A DNA stretch of 64,000 bases from an uncultured Clostridia bacterium (GTDB lineage Bacteria; Bacillota; Clostridia; Lachnospirales; Lachnospiraceae). The stretch is from the NCBI GenBank assembly GCA_947347075.1, contig CANADC010000019.1, forward strand, positions 18,929 to 82,928, written 5' to 3'. The translations under genes and the position numbers were made by a program. The notes under the pieces are model-generated. The model ran no database searches, was not told where the DNA came from, and saw only the letters and a list, made by a program, of their open reading frames with translations. Below, piece by piece: positions 2,497 through 54,878 of the stretch. The stretch's first letter is position 1, and every line of letters starts with the position of its first letter.

Positions 2497-3687
2497 ATGG
2501 GATTTTGGAAAAAACTTTTTAAGAGAAAAGAAAAACATTCTTTAGAAGGCAAACAGACGATACAGGAATACCTAGGAGAAGACGGAGCAGGAAAAAACGG
2601 TTACGGCAAACTGGAGGTACAAAAGGCCTATCGAATGAACAGTGAGGAGGAGTGTTTTGAATATATCAAGCATTTAAATGAACAGAAGCAGGCAGCTAAG
2701 CGGCAGCTTTCCGAATTGAAAGAGGAGTATGGAAGAATCGGCAGTATATTAAATGATGTGCAGAAAATTGAAGGAATGGAACAAAAAGATAAGCAGGAAC
2801 TTTTTGATGCCGCTATGCGGATAGAAGAGATTAATAAAGAGCGAAAAAAATTTCAAAGTACAGAAAGCAAGATTAGTGAAAAGCAGTATCAGAAGATGGA
2901 GGAATATGGAGAAGGAATCCGTTCTATGATGGCACAGCTAGATGAAGATGAAAAATATGCACATACCTTGGAACAGGATATGCGGCATTTAGAGGCAGAG
3001 AAGACCTCTATCCGCTATGAAAAAGACGAATTATATTCCAAAAAAATCATTGCAAAAAAAGCAGTAGAATGGTCGGTTGTATTGTTGGGGATTAGTATTG
3101 TATTTTATCTGGTCTGTATGATACTGCTGAAAGAAGACTATGAAAATTTTCTTTATGTTATGCTGGGAGTAGTCGGGGTGCTTTTAACGATTACTTTTTT
3201 GATATTTCAAAAAGCTGCAAAAGAGCTGCGGCTGGCGGATCGGAAGCTAAAAAAAGCCATCTTGCTTTTAAACCGTGTAAAGGCACGATATGTTATGATC
3301 ATTAATAGTATTCAGTATCAGTATGCCAAATATGAAGTGAGCAGTGCGTATGAATTGAATTTTATCTGGGGTTTATATTTAGAGGAAAAGAAGAATCGGG
3401 AAAAATATCGGGCCAGCTCAGATCAGCTGCATAAAGCAGAGATGGAAGTGGTTGGAGTTCTTACTGAATATATGGTAGAACAGCCTAGATTTTGGGTGGG
3501 ATATGCTACGGCATTGTTAGATGCAAGAGAGATGGTAGAAGTCCGGCATGATCTAAATGGACGCCGGAAAATGCTTCGGAACAATATGGAAGGAAACCGT
3601 GCATTTTTAGAAATGGCGGAGATCGAGAAGAAAAAACTGGCGGAGATCAATCCAGAATATGCACGGGTGATTTTGACAGGAGCATAA
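2497..3687 (+). CDS. Hypothetical coiled-coil membrane protein with two predicted TM helices
   Basis: ATG 8 nt after the preceding stop. Charged coiled-coil-like N-terminal half. Two hydrophobic segments (WSVVLLGISIVFYLVCMILL and LYVMLGVVGVLLTITFLIF). Confidence 0.5.
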   Translation: MGFWKKLFKRKEKHSLEGKQTIQEYLGEDGAGKNGYGKLEVQKAYRMNSEEECFEYIKHLNEQKQAAKRQLSELKEEYGRIGSILNDVQKIEGMEQKDKQELFDAAMRIEEINKERKKFQSTESKISEKQYQKMEEYGEGIRSMMAQLDEDEKYAHTLEQDMRHLEAEKTSIRYEKDELYSKKIIAKKAVEWSVVLLGISIVFYLVCMILLKEDYENFLYVMLGVVGVLLTITFLIFQKAAKELRLADRKLKKAILLLNRVKARYVMIINSIQYQYAKYEVSSAYELNFIWGLYLEEKKNREKYRASSDQLHKAEMEVVGVLTEYMVEQPRFWVGYATALLDAREMVEVRHDLNGRRKMLRNNMEGNRAFLEMAEIEKKKLAEINPEYARVILTGA

Positions 3688-3729: not shown

Positions 3730-5649
3730 ATGATGTCAAACGGGTTTTTGCGTGTGTCGGCGGCAGCACCAAAGATAAAGGTTGCTGATTGTATTTACAA
3801 TAGAGAACAGACAGAAAAGATAATCGATCAGGCGGTAACGATGCAGGTAAAACTTTTGGTTTTGCCAGAATTAGGAATAACTGGTTATACCTGCGGGGAT
3901 TTATTTCTGCAGAACAGTTTATTGCGTCTAGCAAAAGAACAGGTGATTTTACTTCAGGATTATACAAAAGGAAAGAATATTGTGGTGGCAGTGGGATTTC
4001 CTATGGAATGGAAGGGAGGTCTTTATAATCTTGCTGCGATCTTATTTGACGGAAAAGTATTAGGGCTTGTGCCAAAGCGTGCTATCCCGAATTATTCTGA
4101 ATTTTATGAAGCAAGACATTTTAAAGAAGGAATGGAGGAACCGGTTGAGATTATATTTGGAGGAGAGCGGGTCTTTATGGGAACGAATCTCTTGTTTCAG
4201 TGTGAAACAATAGCAGGATTTACACTTGCTGCAGAGATTTGTGAGGATCTTTGGGTGCCTTGTCCTCCTAGTACTCGCCATGCCTTAGCGGGGGCTACGG
4301 TAATGATCAATCTTTCTGCAAGTGATGAGACAACGGGGAAAGATCGCTATCGCAGACAGTTGGTAGAAAGCCAGTCGGCACGGCTGGTTTGCGGCTATCT
4401 TTATGCAGATGCCGGAGAGGGAGAATCGAGTACCGATCTGGTTTTTGCGGCACATCATATTATAGCGGAGAATGGAACGCTGTTAGTGGAGGCAGTGCGG
4501 TTTCAAAATCAGATGATAACGGCAGATTTGGATCTGGAGCGGATACACAGTGAAAGACGAAGAATGAAGACATTTGGGGCAGCAGAAGGAGTTTATCAAA
4601 CCATATATTTTTCTATAAAGGAAGCAAGAGAAGCGGAAGGATTTTATCGGTATGTCGATCCAGCACCATTTGTTCCAAGTGAAAAGGCGGATCGGGATAA
4701 GCGATGCGAAGAGATTTTGTCAATTCAGGCAATGGGGTTAAAGAAGCGGTTAGAGCATACCGGTTGTAATTCGGCGGTTATCGGTATTTCCGGCGGGTTG
4801 GATTCGACATTGGCACTTTTGGTTACAGCACGGGCATTTGATTTGCTGGGGCTGGAGCGAAAGCAGATTATGGCTGTTACCATGCCTTGTTTTGGAACTA
4901 CGGATCGAACGTATCAAAATTCGATACGGCTGACAGAGCGGCTGGGAGCAAAATTAAAGGAAGTGGATATTCGGGAAGCAGTGCTGCGTCATTTTCAGGA
5001 TATTGGACAAGATTCCAATTTACAGGATGTCACTTATGAAAATGCACAGGCACGGGAGCGGACGCAGGTACTGATGGATTTTGCCAATCAGGGGAATTCT
5101 ATGGTGGTTGGGACCGGGGATATGTCAGAATTGGCACTTGGATGGGCGACCTATAATGGAGATCATATGTCAATGTATGGGGTAAATGCATCCGTGCCGA
5201 AAACGTTGGTAAGACATTTGGTGCGGTATTATGCGGATACCTGTCAGGATCAGGAACTGTCAAATGTACTGCTGGATGTACTGGATACTCCAGTGAGTCC
5301 AGAACTGCTGCCGCCTAAAGACGGAGAGATTGCTCAGAAGACGGAGGATATTGTCGGACCTTATGAGCTGCATGATTTTTATTTATATTATATGCTTCGG
5401 TTTGGGTATACACCGAAGAAAATATGCTTTTTGGCAGAAAAAGCATTTGAGGGGGTTTATCAGAGAGAAGAGATTGTAAAGTGGATGAAGACTTTTTATC
5501 GGAGGTTTTTTTCTCAGCAGTTTAAACGGTCTTGTCTGCCGGATGGACCGAAGGTGGGATCGGTGGCTGTGTCGCCTAGAGGGGATCTTCGGATGCCAAG
5601 TGATGCTTGTGTTCGGATTTGGATGGAGGAGCTGGAAAGGGTGGAATAG
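3730..5649 (+). CDS. nadE: Glutamine-dependent NAD(+) synthetase
   Basis: 639 aa. N-terminal carbon-nitrogen hydrolase-like domain plus C-terminal NAD synthetase domain carrying the GISGGLDSTLAL (SGGxDS) PP-loop motif. RBS AAAGGAAGAG upstream. Confidence 0.9.
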   Translation: MMSNGFLRVSAAAPKIKVADCIYNREQTEKIIDQAVTMQVKLLVLPELGITGYTCGDLFLQNSLLRLAKEQVILLQDYTKGKNIVVAVGFPMEWKGGLYNLAAILFDGKVLGLVPKRAIPNYSEFYEARHFKEGMEEPVEIIFGGERVFMGTNLLFQCETIAGFTLAAEICEDLWVPCPPSTRHALAGATVMINLSASDETTGKDRYRRQLVESQSARLVCGYLYADAGEGESSTDLVFAAHHIIAENGTLLVEAVRFQNQMITADLDLERIHSERRRMKTFGAAEGVYQTIYFSIKEAREAEGFYRYVDPAPFVPSEKADRDKRCEEILSIQAMGLKKRLEHTGCNSAVIGISGGLDSTLALLVTARAFDLLGLERKQIMAVTMPCFGTTDRTYQNSIRLTERLGAKLKEVDIREAVLRHFQDIGQDSNLQDVTYENAQARERTQVLMDFANQGNSMVVGTGDMSELALGWATYNGDHMSMYGVNASVPKTLVRHLVRYYADTCQDQELSNVLLDVLDTPVSPELLPPKDGEIAQKTEDIVGPYELHDFYLYYMLRFGYTPKKICFLAEKAFEGVYQREEIVKWMKTFYRRFFSQQFKRSCLPDGPKVGSVAVSPRGDLRMPSDACVRIWMEELERVE

Positions 5650-5683
5650 GGGAGATTTTATATAATTATAAAAGATTTGGGTT

Positions 5684-5720
5684 AGGGAGAGTGTTCGTTT
5701 GGGAAGGCTCTCCCTTTTTT
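5684..5720. terminator. Intrinsic terminator shared by convergent genes
   Basis: GGGAGAG-loop-CTCTCCC hairpin followed by TTTTTTG. It lies between convergent nadE and the minus-strand gene. Confidence 0.5.
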
Positions 5721-6299: not shown

Positions 6300-6666
6300 C
6301 TGGTGAGGGAAAAGTTTGGGTGTGAGAGTGAGGGGATTGGGGGGAGGATGTTGGAGTGAGGAAGGGGAGGAGGCTAGAGTGGGGAAGGGGAGGACGCTAG
6401 AGCGGGGAAGGGGAGGACGCTAGAGTGGGAAGCCATTTCTTCCCGCTGTTCCGCTCTACGGAAAGTAAGAATGTCTAATGCTTCTGGGGATAGGTGCATC
6501 CAGCCGGACGGACCGGGGTGCAATTCGCCCGTGCTGCGGGCTAAACACACCCCTTTTTTTGCCATTCGAGAATGGCAAAAAATCCTAGTGGATCGACAGA
6601 AGCATAAGACATTCTAACTTTCCTCCGAAGTCACAGCGGGAAGAAATGGCTTTCCCACTCTGGCTG
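6300..6666 (+). repeat. Structured repeat family A, copy A1, with a tandemly triplicated G-rich leader
   Basis: Conserved core CCGGACGGACCGGGGTGCAATTCGCCCGTGCAGCGGGCTAAACACACCCC-T6-GCCATTCGAGAATGGC-A6-TCCTAGTGGATCGACAG. It is flanked by two nested complementary stems. It is preceded by three tandem copies of GGGGAAGGGGAGGACGCTAGAG at 6330-6420. The element proper is about 6411-6666. Confidence 0.8.
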
Positions 6667-8345: not shown

Positions 8346-9014
8346 CTACAGCCGCTTGAAGATAGCGGAGAGTTCCGCAATCCGCTTTTCTGCCGCTTCC
8401 AGCTCTTTCTTCTTGGCGGCGTTCCGGCGTTTGCTCCCGTCCTCGGTCTGCTCGGTCAACAGCTTCATAAACCGGGCTTCGTGCTTGGCGGCGTAGCTGG
8501 TGACTTTCCGTAGGTTCTCGGTCACTCCCTCGGTCAAGAGGTCGGTGCGGATAAAGTGCGCCGTACAGTCTGCCGTGCGCTTCTTGTAGCTGCCGCAGAT
8601 GTAGCAGTCCTGCCGCCGTTTGTCCGTCTGATACCTCTGCTGGTACATGACGCTGCCGCAGTCGGCACAAAAGAGTATGCCGGAGAACAAGCCCACTTCA
8701 TCATAACGGTTGGGGCGTTTGTGCTGCTTGCACAGCTCCTGCACACGCTCCCATGTATCCTTGTCGATTATCTGCTTGTGGTGGTTCTCAAAGATTATCT
8801 GCTTTTCGGCGGGGTTCTCCTTGCTCTGCTTTACCTTGTAGGACACTTTCTCGGTCTTGAAGTTCACAAGGCAGCCCGTGTATTCCCGGTTTTCAAGGAT
8901 ATGCGCCACGGTGTTTGTCGCCCACTTGCACTCATAGCCGGGGTGGTAGCGGCGTGTGCTTCCCGTCCGGTGGTATTCTAGCGTCCCCGGTGTGGGGGTC
9001 TGCTGTTCCGTCAA
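8346..9014 (-). pseudogene. Large serine recombinase, C-terminal portion only
   Basis: Recombinase-domain, Cys-rich zinc-ribbon (CADCGSV...CYICGSYKKRTADC) and coiled-coil tail are present. There is no N-terminal resolvase catalytic domain and no room for one upstream. The DNA is markedly more GC-rich than its surroundings. Confidence 0.65.
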
Positions 9015-9683: not shown

Positions 9684-9878
9684 TCACGCCGAGTAATGTA
9701 TTTTTAGTCCGGCTGTGCTTTCCGCTTCCAGCACTTTCATCATTTTGTCGGTGGTGGCGGTGGTGTCCTGTTTGAAATAGCCCGAAACCACAAGGACGGT
9801 GTTCCCTCTGTGTACTTCTGTCACGCAATCCGGGCGGCGGGCGGTAGTGGCGGTGCTTCTGTTGGGGGTGTCGGTCAT
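9684..9878 (-). CDS. Hypothetical small protein
   Basis: Its start overlaps the stop of the upstream minus-strand ORF by 4 nt (ATGA). It lies in GC-rich foreign DNA and has no recognisable motif. Confidence 0.3.
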   Translation of the reverse strand: MTDTPNRSTATTARRPDCVTEVHRGNTVLVVSGYFKQDTTATTDKMMKVLEAESTAGLKIHYSA

Positions 9879-10465
9879 AGGCTCTCCTTTCTGTTCAGCA
9901 GCGTTTTAAGGCGTTCCATTTTCGCCTGTGCTTTGGCTTTTCTGAAATTCTCCCCGGTAATGCAGACGGGGCAGCACATTTCTGTAAGGCGGTCATAAAT
10001 GCGGGCGTGGGCGGTGTCCTCCGGGTTCTGCAATTCTTTCAGCGTGAGGTTCGTTGTCACGATTAACGGCTTGCCGCTGCGGTATCGGCTGTCAACCACG
10101 TTATAGATTTGCTCTAAGCCGTATTTCGTGCCACGCTCCATGCTGAAATCATCAAGGATAAGCAAGGGGAAGCTGCAAAGGCGGGAGATATATTCGCTGC
10201 GGTCTTTGAAGCTGGCGGCAGCTCCCGCAATACAAGTTTGACCGCATATCGTAATGGGGTATTCTTTATAGGGTGCTTCAAAATATTCGTCTGTTGTGCC
10301 TAAAGGGTAAAACTTTTCTTCTGTGAGGTATTCAAGGGATATTTCCTTTTGCCGCCGTCTGCTCCTGTCACGCCATGCGTTAATAGCCGCAAAGCGTATA
10401 ACGGTCTTGCAATAGCTATTGAACGTATACATGATGTGTTTTCTGTATGCTTCTGTGCAGGGCAT
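9875..10465 (-). pseudogene. DnaC/IstB-like ATPase, degenerate (C-terminal half only)
   Basis: C-terminal half matches the DnaC/IstB family (LLILDDFSMERGT...IVTTNLTLKEL...RIYDRLTEM...ITGENFR). The N-terminal half has no Walker A GxxGxGKT motif and is unrelated. Probably a fused or decayed gene in the GC-rich mobile-element remnant. Confidence 0.5.
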
Positions 10466-12295: not shown

Positions 12296-12406
12296 CAATG
12301 CAAAAATTCTAAAATTATTTTTAATAAAAAAAGAAAGAAGGAAATTTAACAAAAAAAAATAAGAATATACTGGAGCAAAGAGAAAAAAGTAGATTGTGAG
12401 ACAATA

Positions 12407-12660
12407 CAGCCAGAGTACTTGAAAGGGAACTGTGACTTCGGAGGAAAGTTAGAAGCTCTTAGACTTCTGTCAATCCACTAGGATTTTTTGCCATTCTCGA
12501 ATGGCAAAAAAAGGGGTGTGTTTAGCCCGCTGTACGGGCGAATTGCACCCCGATCCGTCCGGTTGGATATGCCTAGATTCAGAAGTCTTAGAGCTTCTGC
12601 TTTTCGGAGAGCGGAACAGTTCCCTTTCAAGTACTCTGGCGTTATTTCCGGGGAATTTTT
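12407..12660 (-). repeat. Structured repeat family A, copy A2 (reverse orientation)
   Basis: Same conserved core as A1 in reverse complement. Its outer stem (CAGAGTACTTGAAAGGGAACTG / CAGTTCCCTTTCAAGTACTCTG) and inner stem (GAAGCTCTTAGACTTCTG / CAGAAGTCTTAGAGCTTC) differ from other copies but remain complementary. Confidence 0.8.
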
Positions 12661-19935: not shown

Positions 19936-20123
19936 TTGGGGGGGACGCTGACATCATTGGGTGATTTTCTGTTGGGGGGACGCTGACACCACTGGATGAT
20001 TCTCTGCTGGGGCCGTTTGCACTAAGGCTTCCTCGCAGCGGACACATAAGGCACGAAAAGACCGTGCCTAAGTGCCGGCGGGAAGCAATACCCCTGCAGA
20101 GATTCATCCAGCGGTGTCAGCTG
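19936..20123 (+). repeat. Structured repeat family C, copy C1, with duplicated G-rich leader
   Basis: Core GGGGCCGTTTGCACTAAGGCTTCCTCGCAGCGGACACATAAGGCACGAAAAGACCGTGCCTAAGTGCCGGCGGGAAGCAATACCCCTGCA. It is flanked by the complementary arms CTGACACCACTGGATGATTCTCTGC / GCAGAGATTCATCCAGCGGTGTCAG. The leader TTGGGGGGACGCTGACA occurs twice in tandem. Confidence 0.75.
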
Positions 20124-20190
20124 TGTATTCCAACCGGAACAGTCGCAGTATTTTGGTTGATTAAAACCGTTTTTGTGTGATTTTAGATAG

Positions 20191-20356
20191 TTTAACCTCA
20201 TCAAGGAAGTCCTCCGCTTTTAAGCCGTCAAGGCGAAAGCGGTGGGTGGGGATTTCCTTGTTTCAGTGAGAGTGCAGACTCCCACTGAAAAGCTGCGATA
20301 GCAGCTATGAGGTTAGGAGCAAGTAGCGAAGCGGATTGCGAATATCCAATTTGACT
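20191..20356 (+). repeat. Repeat family B, full-length copy
   Basis: Same architecture as 6955-7115. Confidence 0.8.
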
Positions 20357-20475
20357 CTATCAAGGAAGTCCCCCGCTTCTAAGCCGCCAAGGCGAAAGTG
20401 GTGAGTGGGGATTTCCTTGTTTCAGTGAGAGTGCAGACTCCCACTGAAAAACTGCGATAGCAGCATAGGATTACA
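20357..20475 (+). repeat. Repeat family B, tandem second copy (5' part)
   Basis: CTATCAAGGAAGTCCCCCGCTTCTAAGCCGCCAAGGCGAAAGTGG...CAGACTCCCACTGAAAAACTGCGATAGCAGCATAGG, directly abutting the previous copy. Confidence 0.7.
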
Positions 20476-20484
20476 AATTTCTTT

Positions 20485-20690
20485 TAACTCCAGAAGGAAT
20501 ATTCCAACAGTCGGAGTAGAGAATTTTTACGGGGCGTTGTTTTTAGAAGGAATGAACCAGCAGACCGAATAAAATATTTTTGTGAAGTATCATTTCCAGG
20601 GGGAATAAGCCAACAGGCGGAATAAAAACGTTTATGAGGTATTATTTTTAGGGGGAACGAAACAGCGGGTAGCATAGAGAGAATCTTTGC
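20485..20690. repeat. Degenerate tandem array of about 4 units of about 55 bp
   Basis: Units are AGAAGGAAT..CCAACAG.CGGA.TA.A...TTTT....G...T.ATTTTT. They are imperfect, of unequal length and have no spacers. Confidence 0.45.
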
Positions 20691-20797
20691 AGGGGTATTG
20701 CTTCCCGCCGGCACTTAGGCACGGTCTTTTCGTGCCTTATGTGTCCGCTGCGAGGAAGCCTTAGTGCAAACGGCCCCAGCAAAGATTCTCTCTATGC
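20674..20797 (-). repeat. Structured repeat family C, copy C2 (inverted relative to C1)
   Basis: Reverse complement of the family C core, flanked by the arms AGAGAGAATCTTTGC / GCAAAGATTCTCTCT. Confidence 0.75.
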
Positions 20798-20947
20798 TAC
20801 CTGCGTCCGGTTCTACAATACCAATATCTGGTTTATAATTGCTGAAGTGGTTTTCTTTTTTTCTGATAACTTTTCTTTAGAAATTGAATAAGCCTTGAAA
20901 ATTAGGGAAATACTCTTGGTAAAATTAGAGTATTGGAGGAGAGAGTA

Positions 20948-21169
20948 ATGCCGACTAAGAAAAAGAAAGAAATTGATTTGGAGAATTTAACACCAGAGGA
21001 TGAGATGAAATTAGAAATTGCAGAGGAAATTGGGGTGTTGGATAAAGTGCTGAAAGGGGGATGGGGAACGCTTTCTGCACGGGAAACCGGACGTATCGGC
21101 GGAATTCTTGGGACACGGAATCGAAAAAAGAAAGCACAAGAGGAAAAAGCATCTCAGGAGAATAGTTGA
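20948..21169 (+). CDS. Alpha/beta-type small acid-soluble spore protein
   Basis: 73 aa with start ATG 20948 (RBS GGAGGAG). KLEIAEEIGV...GGWGTLSARETGRIGGIL matches the alpha/beta SASP signature (EIA.E.GV...S..G..GG). Confidence 0.7.
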   Translation: MPTKKKKEIDLENLTPEDEMKLEIAEEIGVLDKVLKGGWGTLSARETGRIGGILGTRNRKKKAQEEKASQENS

Positions 21170-23553: not shown

Positions 23554-23916
23554 GGGGTTGTACTGGTTTCGACGGGGATTATGAAGTTGGAGAAGCCACC
23601 TGCGGGTCGGAACCGCATTAGTAAACCGAAAATTAAATATAAACGCAAACGAAGATTACGCGTTCGCTGCTTAATAGCAGCTGTCGCTCTTAGGTAGCTT
23701 ACTGCTTAAGAATCCGGCATCAAGGAGGTAAGGAACTTTGTATCCAAAGCTTTGAGGGTATAAAAGAAAAATGAAGCTACTAAAGCCGGAAACCTGTCCA
23801 TGGGTGTCCGATAGAGGGAACCGTATAGAAAAAGGCTATGCATAAAACAGGGACTGTGGTGGGAGATGCTTTGATGGAGGAGTCTTCGGACAGGGGTTCG
23901 ATTCCCCTCAGCTCCA
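23554..23916 (+). ncRNA. ssrA: tmRNA (SsrA)
   Basis: 5' GGGGTTGTACTGGTTTCGACGGGG matches the tmRNA consensus GGGG..G..CUGG.UUCGACGGG. Internal tag reading frame ends ...ANEDYAFAA followed by TAA. 3' end GGACAGGGGTTCGATTCCCCTCAGCTCCA forms a T-arm plus a 7-bp acceptor stem with the G3:U pair. CCA is not encoded. Confidence 0.85.
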
Positions 23917-23942
23917 TCGGTTAAACGTAACCGTGTTATGTT

Positions 23943-24016
23943 CGAGGTGTGGCTCAGTTTGGTAGAGCGCTACGTTCGGGACGTAGAAGTCGCGTGTTCG
24001 AATCACGTCACCTCGA
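23943..24016 (+). tRNA. tRNA-Pro (anticodon CGG)
   Basis: Cloverleaf folded by hand. Acceptor CGAGGTG/CACCTCG. D-arm GCTC-AGTTTGGTA-GAGC. Anticodon arm CTACG-TTCGGGA-CGTAG with G37. T-arm GCGTG-TTCGAAT-CACGT. 74 nt, no encoded CCA. Confidence 0.85.
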
Positions 24017-24180
24017 CTGAATTTAAGCAGATGCGGATCGCGTCTGCTAATTTTTTTTTTCGAAAGTGCTTGCCAAAATGGTTGTTTGTGTTATATAGTA
24101 TATTCGAAAAGCTATTTGTGCCGAAAGGAACGAAAAAGAGAAAAAAAGGAATTGGTATGCAATTAGAGGAGGAGTATAGA

Positions 24181-28063: not shown

Positions 28064-28324
28064 GGGGGAGGGGACGCTAGAGTTTGGAAGCAATTCTTTT
28101 TTGCTGTTCCGCTCTCCGAAAAGTAAGAACGGCTAATGCCTCTGAGTTTAGGTGCATCTGACCGGACGGATCGGCACGCAATTCGCCTCTGCAGGAGGCT
28201 AAACACGTGCCTTTTTTTGCCATTTGGAAATGGCAAAAAATCCTAGTGGATCGACAGAGGCATAAGACGTTCTAACTTTTCTCCGAAGTCACAGCAAAAA
28301 AGAATCGCTTCCCAACTCTGGCTG
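28064..28324 (+). repeat. Structured repeat family A, copy A3
   Basis: Begins 8 nt after the histidine-kinase stop codon. Outer stem AGAGTTTGGAAGCAATTCTTTTTTGCTG / CAGCAAAAAAGAATCGCTTCCCAACTCT and inner stem AGAACGGCTAATGCCTCTG / CAGAGGCATAAGACGTTCT. Confidence 0.8.
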
Positions 28325-29711: not shown

Positions 29712-29831
29712 TTTAACCTCATTAAGGGAGTCCCCCGCTTCTAAGCCGTCAAGGCGAAAGCGGTGGGTTGGGACTTCCTTGATGAGGTTATGAGCAAGTA
29801 GCGAAGCGGATTGCGAATATCCGATTTGACT
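29712..29831 (+). repeat. Repeat family B, short form (no inner hairpins)
   Basis: TTTAACCTCATTAAGGGAGTCCCCCGCTTCTAAGCCGTCAAGGCGAAAGCGGTGGGTTGGGACTTCCTTGATGAGGTTATGAGCAAGTAGCGAAGCGGATTGCGAATATCCGATTTGACT. Confidence 0.8.
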
Positions 29832-29882
29832 TGTAAAGTTGACGATGTTATCCAACATTGCCAAGATAGGAGGAATATTTGA

Positions 29883-30881
29883 GTGGATAAAATAGATTTT
29901 GAAAATATTCATTTATATTGTGGGGATGCGATTAGATTATATAGTAAATGGAAAACTCCAGTTGTTATAATCTGTGATGGACCATATGGCGTAAATGGAT
30001 TTCCAGGAGATTTAGTTTCATATAAAGGACTTGCAGAGTGGTATGAGCCACATATAAAAAAATGGAGTTCTTTTGCTACACCGCTTACAACGTTATGGTT
30101 TTGGTGTACTGAGGTTGGTTGGGCAACGGTTCACCCTATGTTAGAAAAATATGGCTGGGATTATGTTTCTTGCTGCGTATGGGATAAAGGAATGGGACAT
30201 GCAGCGGGAAATACAAATACTAAAACGATTAGACATTTGCCTGTAGTTACAGAAGTGTGTGTTCAATATGTAAAAAAGCCTATCTTTATGGTAGGAGAGG
30301 TTCAAATGACAATGAAAGAATGGCTGCGCTATGAATGGGAACGTACAGGGCTTCCATTTTCAAAAACAAATGAAGCTTGTGGAGTGAAAGATGCCGCAAC
30401 AAGAAAATATTTTACAAAATGTCATTTATGGTATATGCCGCCTGCAGAAGCTTTTGAAAAGATTGCAGTATATGCAAATACATTTGGAGCAGATAATGGA
30501 AAACCATACTTTTCTTTAAATGGTAAAACCGTTATAACAAAAAAAGAGTGGGCACAGATGCGTTCAAAATTTTATTGTCCTATTGGTGTAACAAATGTAT
30601 GGCAGGTTCCACAGTTGAGAGGGCACGAACGCTTGAAAATTAACCAAAAGGCAATACATCTAAATCAGAAACCATTGGAATTGATTAAACGTACCATAGA
30701 AATGGTTTCTGATGTTGGTGATGTGGTTTGGGATCCATTTGCTGGATTATGTACAACAGCGGTTGCTTCAACTGAGTTGGAACGAATTTGTTTTTGTGCA
30801 GAAATCAATCATGATGTATATAATATAGCAGTAGAACGAGTAAAAAACAGTTTACAGGATGGTTTTCAATGCGTTCTCTAA
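29883..30881 (+). CDS. DNA methyltransferase, N4/N6-MTase family, beta class
   Basis: GTG start with RBS AGGAGG. Motif IV-like ICDGPYGV (a DPPY variant) lies near the N-terminus and motif I VWDPFAGLCTTAVAS (DPFxGSGTT) near the C-terminus. That order is typical of beta-class amino-MTases. AT-rich relative to flanking genes. Confidence 0.7.
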   Translation: MDKIDFENIHLYCGDAIRLYSKWKTPVVIICDGPYGVNGFPGDLVSYKGLAEWYEPHIKKWSSFATPLTTLWFWCTEVGWATVHPMLEKYGWDYVSCCVWDKGMGHAAGNTNTKTIRHLPVVTEVCVQYVKKPIFMVGEVQMTMKEWLRYEWERTGLPFSKTNEACGVKDAATRKYFTKCHLWYMPPAEAFEKIAVYANTFGADNGKPYFSLNGKTVITKKEWAQMRSKFYCPIGVTNVWQVPQLRGHERLKINQKAIHLNQKPLELIKRTIEMVSDVGDVVWDPFAGLCTTAVASTELERICFCAEINHDVYNIAVERVKNSLQDGFQCVL

Positions 30882-31733
30882 CTTTTTTTCATCTTTTGAG
30901 GATAAAATTTCACTCCATTGTTTGATTGTCATACTATGAAAAACAGTATTTAAAACATGGGTTTTAAATTGTTCAATTTCCTCATGTTCTATACGGTCGA
31001 TTTTGGCATAATTAGTATCAAGTCTATAAATAAATTGTCCGTATAGAGTTCTTAGAAGTCGTTGATATTCTGGGGCAGGGCTGTATCTTTGGGCATCTTT
31101 TCCCCATGTTTCAACAATGGAAAATGCAGCTTTAGCATCGCATTTATCTGATTGTAATTTATAACCATTCGTGTTGGTTTGCTGCAAATTAGTGGTACGT
31201 TCAGAGGTGTCTTCTGGTTCAAAAACAAGATAGTCAGGTGGTTTATGGTAGTGGGAATCTCTTGCTTCTGCAACACTCTTACCGCTAACTATAAGGACAT
31301 CAATAATTTGAGGCTTTCCCCAAATAACATTCTCTGGTAGCCATGCAATTAGTGCCATATCTATATTATCTTGTGCAAAAATCGTTACACTGTCCTTGAA
31401 GCGTGCTGTAATTTCTGTTGCAAAAGGAAACCATGCTTTAATTTCGATACCAGGGTTAGGTTGGATTATGCTACTCTTGAAAAGTGCATCAGGGAAACCA
31501 GGATCTTGCCTTATCCATTCACCTACGCCATTCCAGTCGTGTTTATTTAATAAGTCAATTGTAGAAAATTCAATCATATTTCCCAACAATGGAGAAAGTT
31601 TTGAGATAACTTTTGCGAGTTGTTTTGCGTATGCTAATGTTGCTGGACGTTTGATATCTAGTACATCAATCAAATGACTGTCTAAAGAAGATAATTCTTT
31701 TTTGGCGGCATCTAGAATATCTCTACTATTCAT
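30852..31733 (-). CDS. Hypothetical protein; candidate type II restriction endonuclease partner of the MTase
   Basis: 293 aa with RBS AAGGAG 8 nt before ATG. Convergent with the MTase and overlapping it by 30 nt at the 3' end. No motif confidently recognised (possible D...E.K near IDMALIAWLPENVIWGK). Confidence 0.4.
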   Translation of the reverse strand: MNSRDILDAAKKELSSLDSHLIDVLDIKRPATLAYAKQLAKVISKLSPLLGNMIEFSTIDLLNKHDWNGVGEWIRQDPGFPDALFKSSIIQPNPGIEIKAWFPFATEITARFKDSVTIFAQDNIDMALIAWLPENVIWGKPQIIDVLIVSGKSVAEARDSHYHKPPDYLVFEPEDTSERTTNLQQTNTNGYKLQSDKCDAKAAFSIVETWGKDAQRYSPAPEYQRLLRTLYGQFIYRLDTNYAKIDRIEHEEIEQFKTHVLNTVFHSMTIKQWSEILSSKDEKKLENALKTIL

Positions 31734-31962
31734 TAAGGTTACTCCTTTTTACAATTAATTCATTTTAGTATATCATGAAAACAGAGTTGAGAAAAGTAGT
31801 GACTTTTGAAAATATTGTAATATAAAATAATAATATATATTTAATCGTAAGAATGGATTGATAAATAGAAAATAATATGTTGCAAAGAACTTTTATTTTT
31901 TTAAAAATAGGAAATGGGAAATGACAAATGATATATTAGTAATTTTCAATATTTTAACCTCA

Positions 31963-32066
31963 TCAAGGAAGTCCCCCGCTTCTAAGCCGCCAAGGCGAAA
32001 GCGGTGGACTTCCTTGATGAGGTTATGAGCAAGTAGCAAAGCGGATTGCGAATATCCGATTTGACT
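31963..32066 (+). repeat. Repeat family B, short form
   Basis: TTTAACCTCATCAAGGAAGTCCCCCGCTTCTAAGCCGCCAAGGCGAAAGCGGTGGACTTCCTTGATGAGGTT...GCGGATTGCGAATATCCGATTTGACT. Direct orientation with the copy at 29712. Confidence 0.8.
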
Positions 32067-32224
32067 TGTTCTATATTTTGAGAAGACAAAATACAAATCT
32101 CTTGTTTTTTCTTAATGAAGTATTTAGAGTGGAAAAAATCTCCTTATTAAATTTTGTATATTTCGGATAGATTAAGAAGATACTATCTTGAAGAAAAATA
32201 AAAAATAAGGAGAAGGTGGGAGGA

Positions 32225-33643
32225 ATGGATAAGACAGATCAACTGAATTTTCAAAATACCTTAAAACGGTTCCAGCAGCTTTTGCGGACAGAGGATAGTT
32301 TTGATATTTTATATAAAGAACTTTTGATTGGTGAGCGAAATGCAGTTTATTTTTTTGTAAATGGTTTTGTAAAAGATGACGATATGCAGAAGTTAATGGC
32401 ATCTTTTGTTAGTATTAAAAAAGAGGATATGCCGTCCGATGCAGCAGGATTTTCTAAAAAATATTTGTCTTATTTAGAAGTGGAGTTAGAGACAAAAGAG
32501 GATACGATTATAAAAAATGTACTTTCTGGTGTGGTTGCAATGTTTGTAGAGGGGTATCAGGAAGCTTATCTGATTGACTGCAGAAGTTATCCATCAAGGG
32601 GAGTAGAGGAACCGGAAAAAGACAGGGTAATGCGTGGTTCTAGGGATGGATTTGTAGAAACGATGGTATCCAATACGGCATTAATTCGCCGCCGAATTCG
32701 AAGTACGGAATTGACAAATGAGATCTATACAGTGGGGCGTTCTTCTAAGACGGATATAGCTGTTTGCTATATGAGAGATCGTGTCGATCCCGAATTTTTA
32801 AAGGAGTTGATTCAGAGGATTAAAAAAATTGATATTGATGCATTGACTATGAATCAGGAGAGTTTGGCGGAATGTCTCTATAGAAGGGGATGGTGGAATC
32901 CGTTTCCGAAGTATAAATATACCGAGCGTCCAGATACGGCAGCGGCATCGATATTGGAAGGAGGGATTGCGGTTTTAGTAGATAATTCTCCTTCTGCTAT
33001 GATTCTGCCTTGTTCGGTATTTGATATTTTAGAGGAAGCAGATGATTATTATTTTCCTCCTGTTACAGGGACTTATCTTAGAGTGTCACGATTTATTATT
33101 ACGATCTTGACAATGATTTTGACACCTACTTGGCTGTTGCTTATGAAAAATCCAGAGTGGGTTCCAGAATGGCTTGCGTTTATCTTTCCGGCTGAAGAGA
33201 TACAGGTTCCTTTGATTTGGCAGTTGATTATTTTGGAATTTGCGATTGATGGGTTGCGGCTTGCGGCTGTGAATACACCTAATATGCTTAGTACGCCTTT
33301 AAGTGTAATTGCGGGTTTAGTATTAGGGGATTATGCGGTACAGTCGGGGTGGTTTAATTCGGAGTCTATGCTTTATATGGCTTTTGTGGTGTTGGCAAAT
33401 TATTCGCAGCCTAGTTTTGAACTGGGGTTTGCACTTAAGTTTATGCGGTTGATTACCTTGCTGCTTACACAAATATTGGATGTTTGGGGATATGGATTTG
33501 GAATTTTGTTTGCGGTATTTTGTATTTGTCAGAATCGCACGCTTTCGGGAAAGAGTTATTTGTATCCGTTGTTTCCTTTTAATGGACGGGAGTTTTTAAG
33601 GCGGTTTGTGCGGATTAGTCTGCCTCAGACGGAGAATAAATAG
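32225..33643 (+). CDS. GerA-family spore germination protein (GerAA/SpoVAF-like)
   Basis: 472 aa. N-terminal soluble domain typical of the GerA family (DILYKELLIGERNAVYFFVNGFVKDDDMQKLM) followed by several TM helices. Confidence 0.7.
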   Translation: MDKTDQLNFQNTLKRFQQLLRTEDSFDILYKELLIGERNAVYFFVNGFVKDDDMQKLMASFVSIKKEDMPSDAAGFSKKYLSYLEVELETKEDTIIKNVLSGVVAMFVEGYQEAYLIDCRSYPSRGVEEPEKDRVMRGSRDGFVETMVSNTALIRRRIRSTELTNEIYTVGRSSKTDIAVCYMRDRVDPEFLKELIQRIKKIDIDALTMNQESLAECLYRRGWWNPFPKYKYTERPDTAAASILEGGIAVLVDNSPSAMILPCSVFDILEEADDYYFPPVTGTYLRVSRFIITILTMILTPTWLLLMKNPEWVPEWLAFIFPAEEIQVPLIWQLIILEFAIDGLRLAAVNTPNMLSTPLSVIAGLVLGDYAVQSGWFNSESMLYMAFVVLANYSQPSFELGFALKFMRLITLLLTQILDVWGYGFGILFAVFCICQNRTLSGKSYLYPLFPFNGREFLRRFVRISLPQTENK

Positions 33644-33747
33644 AATAGGTATAATATATTTTATACTAAGTTTTTCATTTATTGTAGAGTTTCGATTGTT
33701 TGGAGTGGTTTGGGATTGTTTGATTTAGAATTGTTTTGGGTAGTCCT

Positions 33748-33892
33748 GACGCTCGCCCTAAGGGATCTTTCTTTGCTGGGGCCGTTTGCACTAAGGCTTC
33801 CTCGCAGCGGACACATAAGGCACGAAAAGACCGTGCCTAAGTGCCGGCGGGAAGCAATACCCCTGCAAAGAAAGATCCCTTAGGGCGAGCTG
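33748..33892 (+). repeat. Structured repeat family C, copy C3
   Basis: Family C core flanked by perfectly complementary 26-bp arms GCTCGCCCTAAGGGATCTTTCTTTGC / GCAAAGAAAGATCCCTTAGGGCGAGC. Confidence 0.8.
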
Positions 33893-33905
33893 TTTTGTAT
33901 CTTAT

Positions 33906-34013
33906 TTTAACCTCATCAAGGAAGTGCAGACTTTAGACTTTCATTGAAAAGTTGCGATAGTGGCTATGAGGTTATGAGCGAGTAGTGAAGCGGATTGCGA
34001 ATTTCCTTTGATT
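33906..34013 (+). repeat. Repeat family B, divergent short variant
   Basis: TTTTAACCTCATCAAGGAAGTGCAGACTTTAGACTTTCATTGAAAAGTTGCGATAGTGGCTATGAGGTTATGAGCGAGTAGTGAAGCGGATTGCGAATTTCCTTTGATT. Confidence 0.65.
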
Positions 34014-34215
34014 TTTATGCTTTAGTGAAAAATTTCCTATGTTTTACATGGAATATTATATTTATAATAAAATATAGTTGAAAAATTTTAAGGCTGCTTT
34101 TATAATAGAGATGGTAAATAGATCGGAGAGGAAAAATATGGATTTCTCTCCGCATTTTTATATAAAATAGGCGATATATTTTTAATTTAAAGATTTAGGA
34201 GGTTAAATTAAATCC

Positions 34216-34482
34216 GTGTTTTTATTTTTTAAAGATCTGAAAAATAAAGCAAAGAAAAATGCTCAGTTAGAGACAATTTTACAAAAGATACAAATGAATA
34301 TGTCTAATAATTATAAAGACGCAGCACAAGAAAATTTAAAGGAATTTCAAAAGGTTTTTCAGGAATATCTTGATGCAAATAAACTGGATGAAAAACAGAA
34401 AGAATATTATCAAGAAAAATTGTCCAATTTATTAGTACAGATGAAACATTATACACATAAAGATCAGAAAACAACTTGGTAA
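34216..34482 (+). CDS. Hypothetical small helical protein inside a repeat-bounded unit
   Basis: 88 aa with GTG start. AGGAGG lies 13 nt upstream. Lys/Gln-rich and predicted helical. Possibly non-coding. Confidence 0.3.
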   Translation: MFLFFKDLKNKAKKNAQLETILQKIQMNMSNNYKDAAQENLKEFQKVFQEYLDANKLDEKQKEYYQEKLSNLLVQMKHYTHKDQKTTW

Positions 34483-34524
34483 AGCGATTCTATCAAACAT
34501 TCCGTTGAGATAGACAGATTGTAG

Positions 34525-34648
34525 CTGCTGGTGAATCCCTGCAGGGGTATTGCTTCCCGCCGGCACTTAGGCACGGTACTTTCGTGCCTTATGTGTCCGC
34601 TGCGAGGAAGCCTTAGTGCAAACGGCCCCAGCAGGGATTCACCAGCAG
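34525..34648 (-). repeat. Structured repeat family C, copy C4 (inverted relative to C3)
   Basis: Reverse-complement family C core flanked by the arms CTGCTGGTGAATCCCTGC / GCAGGGATTCACCAGCAG. Confidence 0.8.
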
Positions 34649-34842
34649 ATGCAATCGTCCAGATCGCCATAAACAATCATTCGGCTCACTATAAATAACT
34701 TTCTGGCTCACTATAAACAATCAGATTACTATTCGATCGATTCGAATTAAGGTCTTGTCAGATAATAGAAAATCTGCTACAATCGTATATATGTTCGATT
34801 AATCGAAGCAGGTTTGTAATACTATGGGTAAGGAGAACCACA

Positions 34843-35451
34843 ATGATTTATTATATTAAAGGGGAATTAAAAGAAGCTGGTACCGATTTTGCAGTTGTAG
34901 AGAATCATGGAATCGGGTATTTGATACGGGTTCCTGCTGCTGTTATTACTAAGCTTCCGGCAGTGGGCAGCGAAATTCAGATTTTTACATATCTCTATGT
35001 AAGGGAAGATATTTTGGATTTATATGGATTTTTAAATAGAGATGACATGAATATTTTTCGGCTTCTTTTAGGGGTAAGCGGGATAGGTCCAAAGGGAGCT
35101 TTAGCCATTCTTTCTACCATTTCTGCAGATGAACTGCGGTTTGCCGTATTGGCGGGAGATGCGAAAACGATTGCAAAAGCACCTGGAATCGGAAACAAGA
35201 CAGCACAGAAGATGGTAATTGAATTAAAGGATAAATTAAAGTTAGAAGAAGCATTTGAGCAGAAGATAGCAAATGAGGAGAAGTCGTCCTTGGGACAGAC
35301 TGCAGAGATTCAGAATGAGGCGGTGCAGGCATTGACGGCTTTAGGATATAGTCCGACAGATGCTCTTCGTGCGGTTCGTGCGGTAACAGTGACAGAAGAA
35401 ATGACAGTAGAAGCGTTGCTAAAGGCTTCTTTAAAAACGATCAGTCGGTAG
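34843..35451 (+). CDS. ruvA: Holliday junction branch-migration complex subunit RuvA
   Basis: 202 aa. Helix-hairpin-helix motif region [14 protein letters not shown]...[14 protein letters not shown]. Immediately upstream of ruvB. Confidence 0.9.
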
Positions 35452-44302: not shown

Positions 44303-44329
44303 TAGAAAAAAGTGAAGGTTGAGGGGAAT

Positions 44330-44480
44330 GGGAATGGTGTGGATACTGAGATGGGAAAGTTGGGGGGATGGTGTGTGGATATTGAGATGGGAAAGTTGGG
44401 GGATGGTGTGTGGATATTGAGATGGGAAAGCTGGGGGATGGTGTGTGGATATTAGGATAGAAAAGCTGGGGGGATGGTGT
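44330..44480 (+). repeat. Tandem direct repeats (about 4 units of about 37 bp) forming a G-rich leader of family A copy A4
   Basis: GGTGTGTGGATATTGAGATGGGAAAGTTGGGGGAT repeated with minor variants and ending in AGGGGACGCTGGAG. Confidence 0.7.
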
Positions 44481-44735
44481 AGGGGACGCTGGAGTTTGGA
44501 AGCCCTTTCTCTATGCTGTTCCGCTCTCCGAAAAGTAAGAAAGTCTAATGCCTCTGAATGAAAATATATCCAACCGGACGGACCGGGGTGCAATTCGCCC
44601 GTGCAGCGGGCTAAACACACCCCTTTTTTGCCATCAGAAGATGGCAAAAATCCTAGGAGATCGACAGAGGCATAAGACTTTCTAACTTTTCTCCGAAGTC
44701 ACTGCATAGAGAAAGGGCTTCCAAACTCCAGCTGG
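44481..44735 (+). repeat. Structured repeat family A, copy A4
   Basis: Conserved core. Inner stem AGAAAGTCTAATGCCTCTG / CAGAGGCATAAGACTTTCT. Outer stem GGAGTTTGGAAGCCCTTTCTCTATGC / GCATAGAGAAAGGGCTTCCAAACTCC. It follows the carboxypeptidase gene in the same orientation. Confidence 0.8.
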
Positions 44736-48330: not shown

Positions 48331-48413
48331 GCCGCAGTGGCGGAATGGCAGACGCACTAGACTCAAAATCTAGCGGGGGCGACCTCGTGCCGGTTCAAGT
48401 CCGGCCTGCGGCA
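48331..48413 (+). tRNA. tRNA-Leu (anticodon CAA)
   Basis: Type II cloverleaf folded by hand. Acceptor GCCGCAG/CTGCGGC. Anticodon arm CTAGA-CTCAAAA-TCTAG. Long variable arm CGGGGGCGACCTCGTG. T-arm GCCGG-TTCAAGT-CCGGC. 83 nt, no encoded CCA. Confidence 0.85.
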
Positions 48414-48469
48414 CTCTTGGCAGGGGCGTTCTCTGTAGACGAAATGTTTACAGGGAATTTTTTTATGTA

Positions 48470-48553: not shown

Positions 48554-48734
48554 ATAAAAATAGAAAGAACATAACAAATTTTATTCACCATTAGTTTGGG
48601 TAGTTATCAAAAGATAAGATAACTGCCTTTTATTTTATTAAGTCAAAGGAAATTCAGAATCCGCTCCACTACTTCCTTGATAGGTTAAAAAAACAAAAAA
48701 AGAGAAAAAAGAATACCTATATTGTGGAAAAAGA

Positions 48735-48982
48735 CAGCCAGAGTATGGCATTGCAGTACTGTGACTTCGGAGGAAAGTTAGAAGCTTTTAGACTTCTGTC
48801 GATTCATTAGGATTTTTTGCCATTCTTGAATGGCAAAAAAAGGGGTGTGTTTAGCCCGCAGCACGGGCGAATTGCACCCCGGTCCGTCCGGTTGGATGCA
48901 TCTAAATTCAGAAGTCTTAGAGCTTCTTACTTTCTGTAGAGCGAAACAGTACTGCAATGCCATACTCTGGCGTCCTCCCCCC
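48735..48982 (-). repeat. Structured repeat family A, copy A5 (reverse orientation)
   Basis: Reverse complement of the conserved core. The G-rich leader is visible as CGTCCTCCCCCC at the right end. Confidence 0.8.
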
Positions 48983-54624: not shown

Positions 54625-54878
54625 GGGAGGACGCTAGAGTTTGGAACCTATTTCTTGCAGCTGTTCCGCTCTTCGGAAAGAAGAAGCTCTAAGACTTCTG
54701 AGTCTGGGTGTATCCAACCGGACGGAACGGGGTGCAATTCGCCCGTGCAGCGGGCTAAACACACCCCTTTTTTGCCATTCGAGAATGGCAAAAATCCTAG
54801 TGGATCGACAGAAGTCTAAGAGCTTCTAACTTTCCTCCGAAGTCACAGCTGCAAGAAATAGGTTCCAAACTCTGGCTG
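54625..54878 (+). repeat. Structured repeat family A, copy A6
   Basis: Conserved core. Inner stem AGAAGCTCTAAGACTTCTG / CAGAAGTCTAAGAGCTTCT. It sits between the FtsA-like gene and the MVP-like gene. Confidence 0.8.

Follow-up and report, generated by a model that had tools for sequence, protein, structure and literature searches.

Interspersed hairpin elements flank a resident small gene between gerA and ruvA in a mouse-gut Lachnospiraceae genome

Do the two inverted repeats that enclose a small gene next to ruvA form a cassette that carried the gene to its site, or did the repeats come to a gene that was already there? The question was raised by a 64,000-nucleotide (nt) stretch, here called the window, of contig CANADC010000019.1 from an uncultured Clostridia bacterium of the Lachnospiraceae (assembly GCA_947347075.1). 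Between the germination gene gerA and ruvA, two inverted copies of a repeat (family C) enclose a divergent copy of a second repeat (family B) and an open reading frame (ORF) of 88 amino acids (aa), an arrangement that the initial annotation of this DNA read as a mobile or recombinogenic cassette with a small passenger gene. The comparisons described here supported the second answer: the 88-aa gene belongs to a conserved, uncharacterized small protein family adjoining ruvAB, and family C is an interspersed, noncoding hairpin element of about 170 nt of a mouse-gut Lachnospiraceae species.

The outline of the locus was recovered much as first described. Both inverted C copies were found, copy 1 with its hairpin at 33747-33893 and copy 2 at 34494-34660, and their cores are complementary at 98% over 94 nt. 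Copy 1 (33747-33905), which had been labeled +, has its sense strand (defined below) on the - strand and consists of a base motif TGACGC (33747-33752), a 26-bp arm (33751-33776), the core (33777-33864), the complementary arm (33865-33890), and GCTGT (33889-33893), followed by the remnant of a U-rich tail that is shortened by the adjoining B copy. Copy 2 (34494-34660), which had been labeled -, is inverted relative to copy 1, with its sense strand on the + strand and co-directional with the small gene and ruvA; on that strand it consists of a leader or tail (34494-34516), a stem (34517-34542 with 34631-34656), the core (34543-34630), and the base motif TCGTCC (34655-34660). Perfect arms of 26 bp had been claimed for copy 1 and were observed (26 to 27 bp), but the 18-bp arms claimed for copy 2 proved to be the 19-bp perfect inner part of a longer stem, in which 2 mismatches and 5 further pairs follow for a total of 26 bp. 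The divergent B copy, internally shortened, lies where it was expected (about 33906-34016, + strand, by repeat scan; family B begins TTTAACCTCATCAAGGAAG). It is followed by an AT-rich stretch that contains a strong promoter-like site (34078-34106, + strand; TTGAAA-17-TATAAT, 11 of 12 matches) and by the 88-aa gene itself (34216-34482, + strand), which starts with GTG 13 nt downstream of AGGAGG (34197-34202). Between this promoter and the ribosome-binding site, a hairpin CGGAGAG...CTCTCCG and a T-run (34124-34159, + strand) look like a terminator or attenuator; the only Rfam match of this leader hairpin was weak and at chance level (Termite-leu; E value of 1.5). About three degenerate tandem units of roughly 22 nt (GGCTCACTATAAAYAA...; 34661-34725, + strand) adjoin the outer end of copy 2, and a ruvA promoter-like site (34755-34783, + strand; TTGTCA-17-TACAAT with TG) stands clear of the C element and has been conserved in relatives. 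The same architecture, as had been noticed, is found at 19979-20808 in a sister unit (19973-20813) in which C copies at 19979-20124 (sense -) and 20662-20808 (sense +) enclose two B copies and a tandem array of about 52-nt units. The repeat scan gave a window total of four C copies.

In several metagenome assemblies of the same species, a gene for exactly this 88-aa protein was called between gerA and ruvA. A protein search, as had been suggested for this product, returned 314 homologues of about 85 aa that form a conserved Lachnospiraceae family, 44 to 78% identical apart from a near-identical same-species cluster; the few named homologues come from metagenome-assembled genomes (MAGs) of Lachnospiraceae or Clostridiales. 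The family shares an MF.F start, an invariant SNNYKDAAQ, and the motif (Y/F)THKDQKxxW. In the two closest relatives, P0002 (78% identity; locus L039) and P0004 (69% identity; locus L033/L034), the order gerA-small gene-ruvA-ruvB-zapA-U32 peptidase gene is kept, and at neither locus was C or B sequence found by BLAST. The intergenic regions of these relatives are compact; those around the small gene measured 283 and 161 nt in L039, versus 572 and 360 nt in the window. Moreover, L033 retains the TTGAAA...TATAAT promoter of the small gene, the arms and T-run of the leader hairpin (about 3425-3465 of that locus), and the ruvA promoter; across more distant orthologues the leader hairpin was not alignable and gave no consensus structure. 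More distant homologues of the protein occur in other gene contexts, also without C. Since gene, promoter, and gene order are kept where C and B are lacking, C(+), B, and C(-) were added in this lineage around a preexisting transcription unit, and since neither repeat is present at the locus in two sister species, the two C copies would have arrived as separate insertions. The same synteny excludes the insertion of a single unit at this site. Thus, the small gene is not a passenger, and the false lead of a gene-carrying cassette at this locus is removed.

The product was also predicted to be helical, as first proposed. An AlphaFold model built with 38 homologues has three helices (pLDDT of 74.5), the top 12 PDB fold matches returned by Foldseek were all ribosomal protein bS20 (TM of about 0.7), and a profile search matched Bacillus subtilis bS20 at an E value of 0.0013. 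Like bS20, the product is about 85 aa long, Lys-rich, and three-helical; unlike bS20, it matched no Pfam or NCBIfam family, the S20 models included, and the Foldseek E value was only about 0.1. Three-helix bundles are common, and SNNYKDAAQ and THKDQKxxW are not known as bS20 motifs. The product is possibly bS20-like, which is a lead and not a classification.

The anatomy of family C was defined by a gapless alignment of 21 complete copies. In the orientation of the initial annotation, an element begins with about 10 loosely conserved nt, GGAC-GC, about 17 variable nt, and ATTCTYTGC, passes through the core, and continues with GCARAGAAT, the complementary variable segment, GC-TGT, and a tail of about 20 nt (nTATTCCAACCAGAAC), which is conserved on this side only. 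On the opposite strand, which tolerates wobble pairs and is here called the sense strand, the element reads 5'-(GTTCnGGTTGGAATAnACA)GC-(24-nt arm)-core-(complementary arm)-GC-GTCC-3'. The core, of about 88 nt, is nearly invariant between copies and has one apical loop, GAAAAGAC or its complement. The four window copies align without gaps and are the same over an 88- to 93-nt core except for two loop bases; the 26 nt that flank this core on each side are wholly different between these copies and complementary within each copy. Overall, the core was 98% identical between copies, and the arms were 49% identical.

Each window copy folds to a hairpin of about 147 nt at -83 to -96 kcal/mol, with z-scores of -8 to -11 and none of 200 shuffles equally stable. 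Pairing in the stem is kept by covariation: 22 of its 26 pairs have changed on both sides, with 159 doubly changed cells in the 21-copy alignment, and pairing is seen in 96% of the cells of the outer helix, which comprises the stem and four pairs of the core. The covariation score of the stem was reached by none of 500 shuffles, and slid controls came nowhere near it. The two inner helices of the core (22 pairs) show no variation, and the apical-stem changes of diverged copies are compensatory (GGCACG/CGTGCC, GATGCT/AGCATC, and GGTGCT/AGCACC). Several other accounts of this structure were considered. The idea that the arms are preexisting terminator stems invaded by the core was rejected because the arms of different copies are homologous, with common conserved inner and outer segments. 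Hypermutability of the arms was rejected, few arm positions differing between strains, as was the notion that they act as guides to targets elsewhere in the genome: when every arm was compared by BLAST with about 400 kb, the search returned only their own partners, orthologues, further C copies, and partial matches of 15 to 17 nt that were taken as chance. For insertion of the hairpin into a tandem unit of about 50 nt, the cross-junction similarity was too weak to support a claim.

The mismatches of the stem were distributed unequally between the strands. On the strand labeled + by the initial annotation, no G.U pair was present in 546 stem cells, and the 25 unpaired cells comprised 17 A.C or C.A, 6 T.T at one position, and 2 others; the 17 A.C or C.A cells are G.U wobbles on the complementary strand. 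The sense strand was the more stably folding one in 21 of 21 copies, by a mean of 5.6 kcal/mol, and among 15 copies of related hairpin repeats from metagenomes, which have the apical module described below, 14 favored the same strand. Again, two within-species single-nucleotide polymorphisms in the arms (in a 3' arm of the window and in L002/L003) are A.C on the + strand and G.U on the sense strand. Because the stem mismatches wobble on that strand only, the selected form of C would appear to be a single-stranded hairpin of one strand, 5'-...GGAATAnACAGC-stem/core-GCGTCC-3', as RNA or single-stranded DNA (ssDNA). The bias was present even in copies that lie just downstream of an opposite-sense gene, and selection would therefore not act via the transcript of the upstream gene. 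Stem column 28/131, the central base of GANTC, is repeatedly mismatched as T.T, both arms then reading GATTC; between strains and copies this base switches among A-T, T.T, and T-A and is never A.A on that strand (examples at 20003, 20103, 20688, 20783, and 34638 of the window).

Among 185,579 species-representative genomes, only one contained an exact 28-mer of the C core. This genome, the mouse-gut MAG "uncultured Lachnospiraceae bacterium MGBC128194," matched it 21 times, on 18 stretches. A BLAST search with the core added five diverged copies from this MAG, and two copies that end at contig ends (L016 and L019) and a truncated partner in L030, recognized by its arm, were found as well; the resulting count of at least 27 copies refers to the 18 stretches only, about 120 kb of the MAG. 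Family C was not matched in Rfam 15, either at gathering thresholds (window and metagenome loci) or at permissive E values (the region and the whole window), by BLAST in plasmid and phage collections, or by a 20-mer scan of viral contigs. In the literature, core sequence strings gave chance matches only, and nothing specific was found in work on Lachnospiraceae repeats. Family C is previously uncatalogued, and its general kind, interspersed bacterial hairpin repeats or orphan structured motifs, is known. It adds to that kind a hairpin family with clean signatures, namely, strict stem covariation, a strand-specific wobble, an invariant core, and tail-to-tail pairing in all pairs found.

Two pairs of C copies were found in the window and a further eight in the MAG, 10 in all; the MAG locus L030 is the orthologue of the 20-kb window pair. 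All 10 run "+ then -" in the annotated orientation, so that tails point inward and GGACGC ends point outward; the chance of such agreement is about 1e-6 over four arrangements and about 1e-3 over two inverted arrangements. The enclosed DNA spans 112 to 650 nt and is an AT-rich spacer only in five pairs and a 42-nt tandem array in L021, besides the B copies and array of the 20-kb pair. Three pairs enclose a small gene: the one at this locus, L022 (a Cys/Gly-rich ORF), and L032 (a minus-strand ORF that, judged by eye, is acetyltransferase-like). Enclosed DNA is unrelated between pairs, B copies excepted, and the passenger content that was to be conserved across C-bounded units was not observed. 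Within a pair, the arms of one copy are likewise unrelated to those of the other. Solitary copies also occur, between convergent genes in L024 and L028.

The window loci were compared in four to five other strains each. At the 20-kb locus, both C copies are kept in four further strains; only other species lacked C at the orthologous sites. One strain, L001 (ERZ12802909), has the exact reverse complement of the core in copy 1, between 27-bp arms that are unchanged, and since the flanks differ directly outside the arms, a de Bruijn assembly artifact was judged unlikely. The canonical core orientation was found at all 28 distinct loci and in the other strains at the two window loci, including five others at the 34-kb locus, and copy 2 was canonical in six of six strains examined; flips thus amount to 1 in about 40 observations. 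This flip looks like an occasional recombination between perfect arms and not like a regulated switch.

A third repeat of the window ties family C to a described motif. Family A has copy-specific arms of 23 to 32 bp around a conserved core of about 180 nt, which scores 68 bits with the model of TwoAYGGAY (Rfam RF01731), whose gathering score is 43. Its copies lie at 6418-6664, 12403-12646, 28076-28322, 44488-44732, 48731-48977, 54633-54876, 59273-59519, and 63852-64000, with outer stems at 6427, 12403, 28076, 44488, 48737, 54633, and 59273 and with the copy at 63852 truncated. In the Rfam sense, family A reads 5'-ACAGCCAGAG-arm-CTGT...ACAG-arm'-CTCTAGCGTCC-3', and this strand was the more stable one in seven of seven copies. 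Families A and C have the same termini, ACAGC...GCGTCC, on the same, wobble-rich strand. TwoAYGGAY was described as an orphan motif without known function (Weinberg et al. 2010; PMC2864571), and its very long P1 was noted by its discoverers (PMC2864571, supplement). Family C likewise stands on a long, copy-specific, near-perfect closing stem (about 24 to 32 bp in A; 26 bp in C, at the level of pairing given above), and both families are multicopy and intergenic, with tandem duplications at the outer end. However, C lacks the two AYGGAY loops, and its 88-nt core has no sequence or covariance-model similarity to TwoAYGGAY (no match to either C copy in searches at E values up to 10 and up to 0.5). 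In the Psychromonas seed sequences of TwoAYGGAY, the ACAGC/GCGTCC termini were not obviously present. Because the termini are common to A and C on the wobble-rich strand, C is best described as a new head on a TwoAYGGAY-type scaffold, and because A carries them in the same genome, the same machinery probably handles A. Six of the eight family A copies are antisense to the surrounding + strand genes, and five of these six lie within about 200 nt of a gene stop.

Long-hairpin families of other organisms, found on metagenome contigs (ERZ777011, ERZ808028, and WFLX01; L042-L055), share with C only an apical module of about 45 nt, CGC-AG-CGG-A-CAC-ATAA-GGCACN...NGTGCC-TAA-GTG-CCG-GCG. One of these related hairpins (L053) also has GGACGC...GCTGT ends, and in another organism (L054) a tail-to-tail pair of them brackets a tRNA gene. 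It is conceivable, if doubtful, that A, C, and these relatives form one class, in which different heads sit on a stem of free sequence with common base motifs and a common machinery acts on the single-stranded hairpin to propagate or process the elements. TwoAYGGAY, described as an RNA motif, would in that case itself be a hairpin element that moves or is processed, and the strict tail-to-tail pairing and the flipping of the core would be traces left by the mechanism of the class. In any case, the shared termini connect C to a motif that has stood without a function since 2010, and they provide a handle on TwoAYGGAY-type elements in the form of one genome of a cultivable lineage with two families, strand predictions, and natural variants.

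The explanation that we consider best overall, with a probability of about 0.6, is that C is a REPIN/TwoAYGGAY-like hairpin element whose separate, lineage-specific insertions flank a resident gene and which is selected as a single-stranded hairpin. By analogy, the mechanism is most likely REPIN-like: C would be a nonautonomous element that is propagated or maintained via a single-stranded hairpin intermediate with a 5' tail, shared machinery would read the core, base motif, and tail sequence-specifically, and the stem would need pairing only. The ssDNA and RNA forms were weighted about equally; as RNA, C could for example be a stable RNA that is processed and stands on a stalk of the RNase III type, with an equal structural fit. 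The presumed ssDNA transposition intermediate of REPINs is a long hairpin that carries compensatory changes and has an asymmetric 5' tail (PMC3116915), and C shows both compensatory hairpin changes and, in its single-stranded form, an asymmetric 5' tail. Like the REPIN/RAYT system (Bertels and Rainey 2011), C consists of noncoding, intergenic, multicopy long hairpins that persist vertically in the lineage. Unlike REPINs, C has no GTAG/CTAC motif, its base motif being RAC-A-GC...GC-GTC, and its copies stand in tail-to-tail pairs hundreds of bases apart. At the locus itself, copy 1 would put a large hairpin and a U-rich tract 105 nt past the gerA stop and would probably serve as the gerA 3' end, and copy 2 would put a 147-nt sense-strand hairpin into the spacer between the small gene and ruvA. 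No terminator hairpin was seen by eye between the small-gene stop and copy 2, and this hairpin is therefore probably cotranscribed.

A number of observations weigh against the REPIN/TwoAYGGAY-like explanation. REPINs have conserved REP 25-mers at the stem base and a variable tip, whereas in C the tip is invariant and the middle of the stem is variable. All four window copies were present in every strain examined, without presence/absence polymorphism, no target-site duplication was found at C, the flanks on the two sides sharing only a loosely similar unit of about 20 nt, and the element could be linked to none of a transposase, a RAYT, and a reverse transcriptase; the window proteins scanned included neither a Y1 transposase nor an intact recombinase. 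The tail-to-tail rule that holds in 10 of 10 pairs is not predicted by independent insertion, and the invariance of the core could reflect gene conversion instead of selection. With regard to an RNA role, about half of the copies have a sense strand that runs antisense to the gene beside them, and no conserved promoter was found upstream of the sense strand. Inner promoters that would drive both sense strands outward were considered, and no sigma-70-like sites were found in the short interiors of L017 and L026. The tail-to-tail pairing, the strand-specific wobble, the flip event, and the termini shared with TwoAYGGAY are unusually clean properties of C.

Part of what could be explained otherwise concerns transcription. 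Family C might be host transcription punctuation, in which the hairpin and its U-rich GCUGUnUAUU tail terminate transcription and tail-to-tail pairs insulate the interior, a role suggested by 10 copies that follow a co-directional gene stop at 0 to 108 nt and by a pair geometry that places the U-rich tails inside. At this locus, a scan showed no terminator other than copy 1 on the way from gerA to it, and in the relative L033 small terminator-like hairpins, judged by eye, follow gerA. Yet it is the terminating strand on which the A.C mismatches fall, often in the third pair counted from the base of the stem, while the opposite strand wobbles, and this bias is the same even in copies adjoining gene 3' ends. 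An invariant core of 88 nt, moreover, is not needed for termination, and about half of the copies are turned toward the start of a gene instead. We consider punctuation unlikely as the general role. The flipped core in L001, exactly inverted between identical 27-bp arms and probably no artifact, invites the alternative that C is an inverton, in which a site-specific recombinase flips the core between the arms and so switches a promoter or an RNA. In invertible promoters such as the C. difficile RecV switches and Bacteroides Mpi sites, a short segment between inverted repeats is seen in both orientations, and in C a flip was seen in one strain at one locus; C differs in the rarity of the flip, only one flipped copy being set against the canonical loci and strains counted above, and in its strand-specific structural selection. 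The core is GC-rich, no promoter-like site lies inside either C copy (scan of 33500-34900), and the sole terminator-like match in C (34575-34588) corresponds to copy 2's apical stem-loop. Both the asymmetry of the wobbles and the fixed orientation of the core relative to the termini argue for one functional orientation, and no recombinase gene is nearby, only a truncated serine recombinase fragment 25 kb away. We therefore regard an inverton as very unlikely.

The cassette of the initial annotation, with C(+)...C(-) as the terminal inverted repeats of a composite mobile unit that captures and moves small passenger genes, fared differently in its parts. The arrangement does recur, with the same relative orientation and outward GGACGC ends in every pair, three pairs do enclose a small gene, a related pair brackets a tRNA gene elsewhere, the insertions are lineage specific, and the repeats are recombinogenic, one strain having a flipped core. 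However, synteny largely refutes one cassette carrying the gene, the ORF and its promoter standing in unchanged order between gerA and ruvA without C or B in L039 and L033. Interiors without homology between pairs other than B copies, unrelated arms within pairs, solitary copies between convergent genes, and ORF homologues in other contexts without C all point the same way, and the cassette now appears highly improbable. Two further known systems were compared. Bacterial MITEs (small inverted-repeat transposable elements) and palindromic repeats, such as Correia/NEMIS, ERIC, RUP, and BOX, are 100 to 200 bp long, intergenic, hairpin-folding, and cotranscribed, and they can terminate transcription or be processed; their families have conserved terminal inverted repeats throughout and target-site duplications. 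In C, by contrast, the inverted arms are copy specific, and neither a duplication nor an insertion polymorphism between strains was found. Integron attC sites have RYYYAAC...GTTRRRY ends and form a same-orientation array next to intI, whereas C ends in GGACGC...GCTGT and its copies stand in inverted pairs.

It is family B that resembles a classical MITE. At the 20-kb locus, in the addA-SASP intergenic region, zero, one, or two B copies are present among strains (window 20186-20480; empty site in L058, 2850-3665). The empty site reads ...GTTTAA/TCCAGG..., and a TTTAA direct repeat bounds the insertion; at the 34-kb locus, the B interior is of another variant in L002. Family B thus behaves as an active MITE in this species. 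Since the B count varies and C is present in all strains examined, B is currently mobile, and C is fixed at its four window sites. Two other B copies (29712-29832 and 31953-32067) enclose a likely type II restriction-modification pair (29712-32067) that consists of an N6_N4 methyltransferase gene (29883-30881) and a 293-aa ORF of unknown family (30852-31733, - strand); strain L001 lacks the pair and has the 240-aa gene directly followed by gerA. Many A and C copies have short tandem arrays of 22- to 52-nt units next to their outer or tail end (in the window at 6341-6429, 44327-44472, 19940-19975, 20480-20660, and 34661-34725; in L020 at 1-200; and in L021 at 5338-5700). The units of these arrays resemble the terminal segment or tail of the element itself, and several are partial duplications of "GGACGC + 5' arm."

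Elsewhere in the window, the truncated large serine recombinase gene (8346-9014, - strand), which retains only Recombinase and Zn-ribbon domains, and an IstB-like fragment (9875-10465, - strand) lie in an accessory region of mixed gene orientation that is bracketed by divergent A copies (6418 and 12403). Ordinary features are a transfer-messenger RNA (23554-23919), tRNA-Pro (23943-24017), tRNA-Leu (48331-48414), a thiamine pyrophosphate riboswitch (59702-59812), and, just 3' of the 20-kb C pair, an alpha/beta-type SASP gene (20933-21169).

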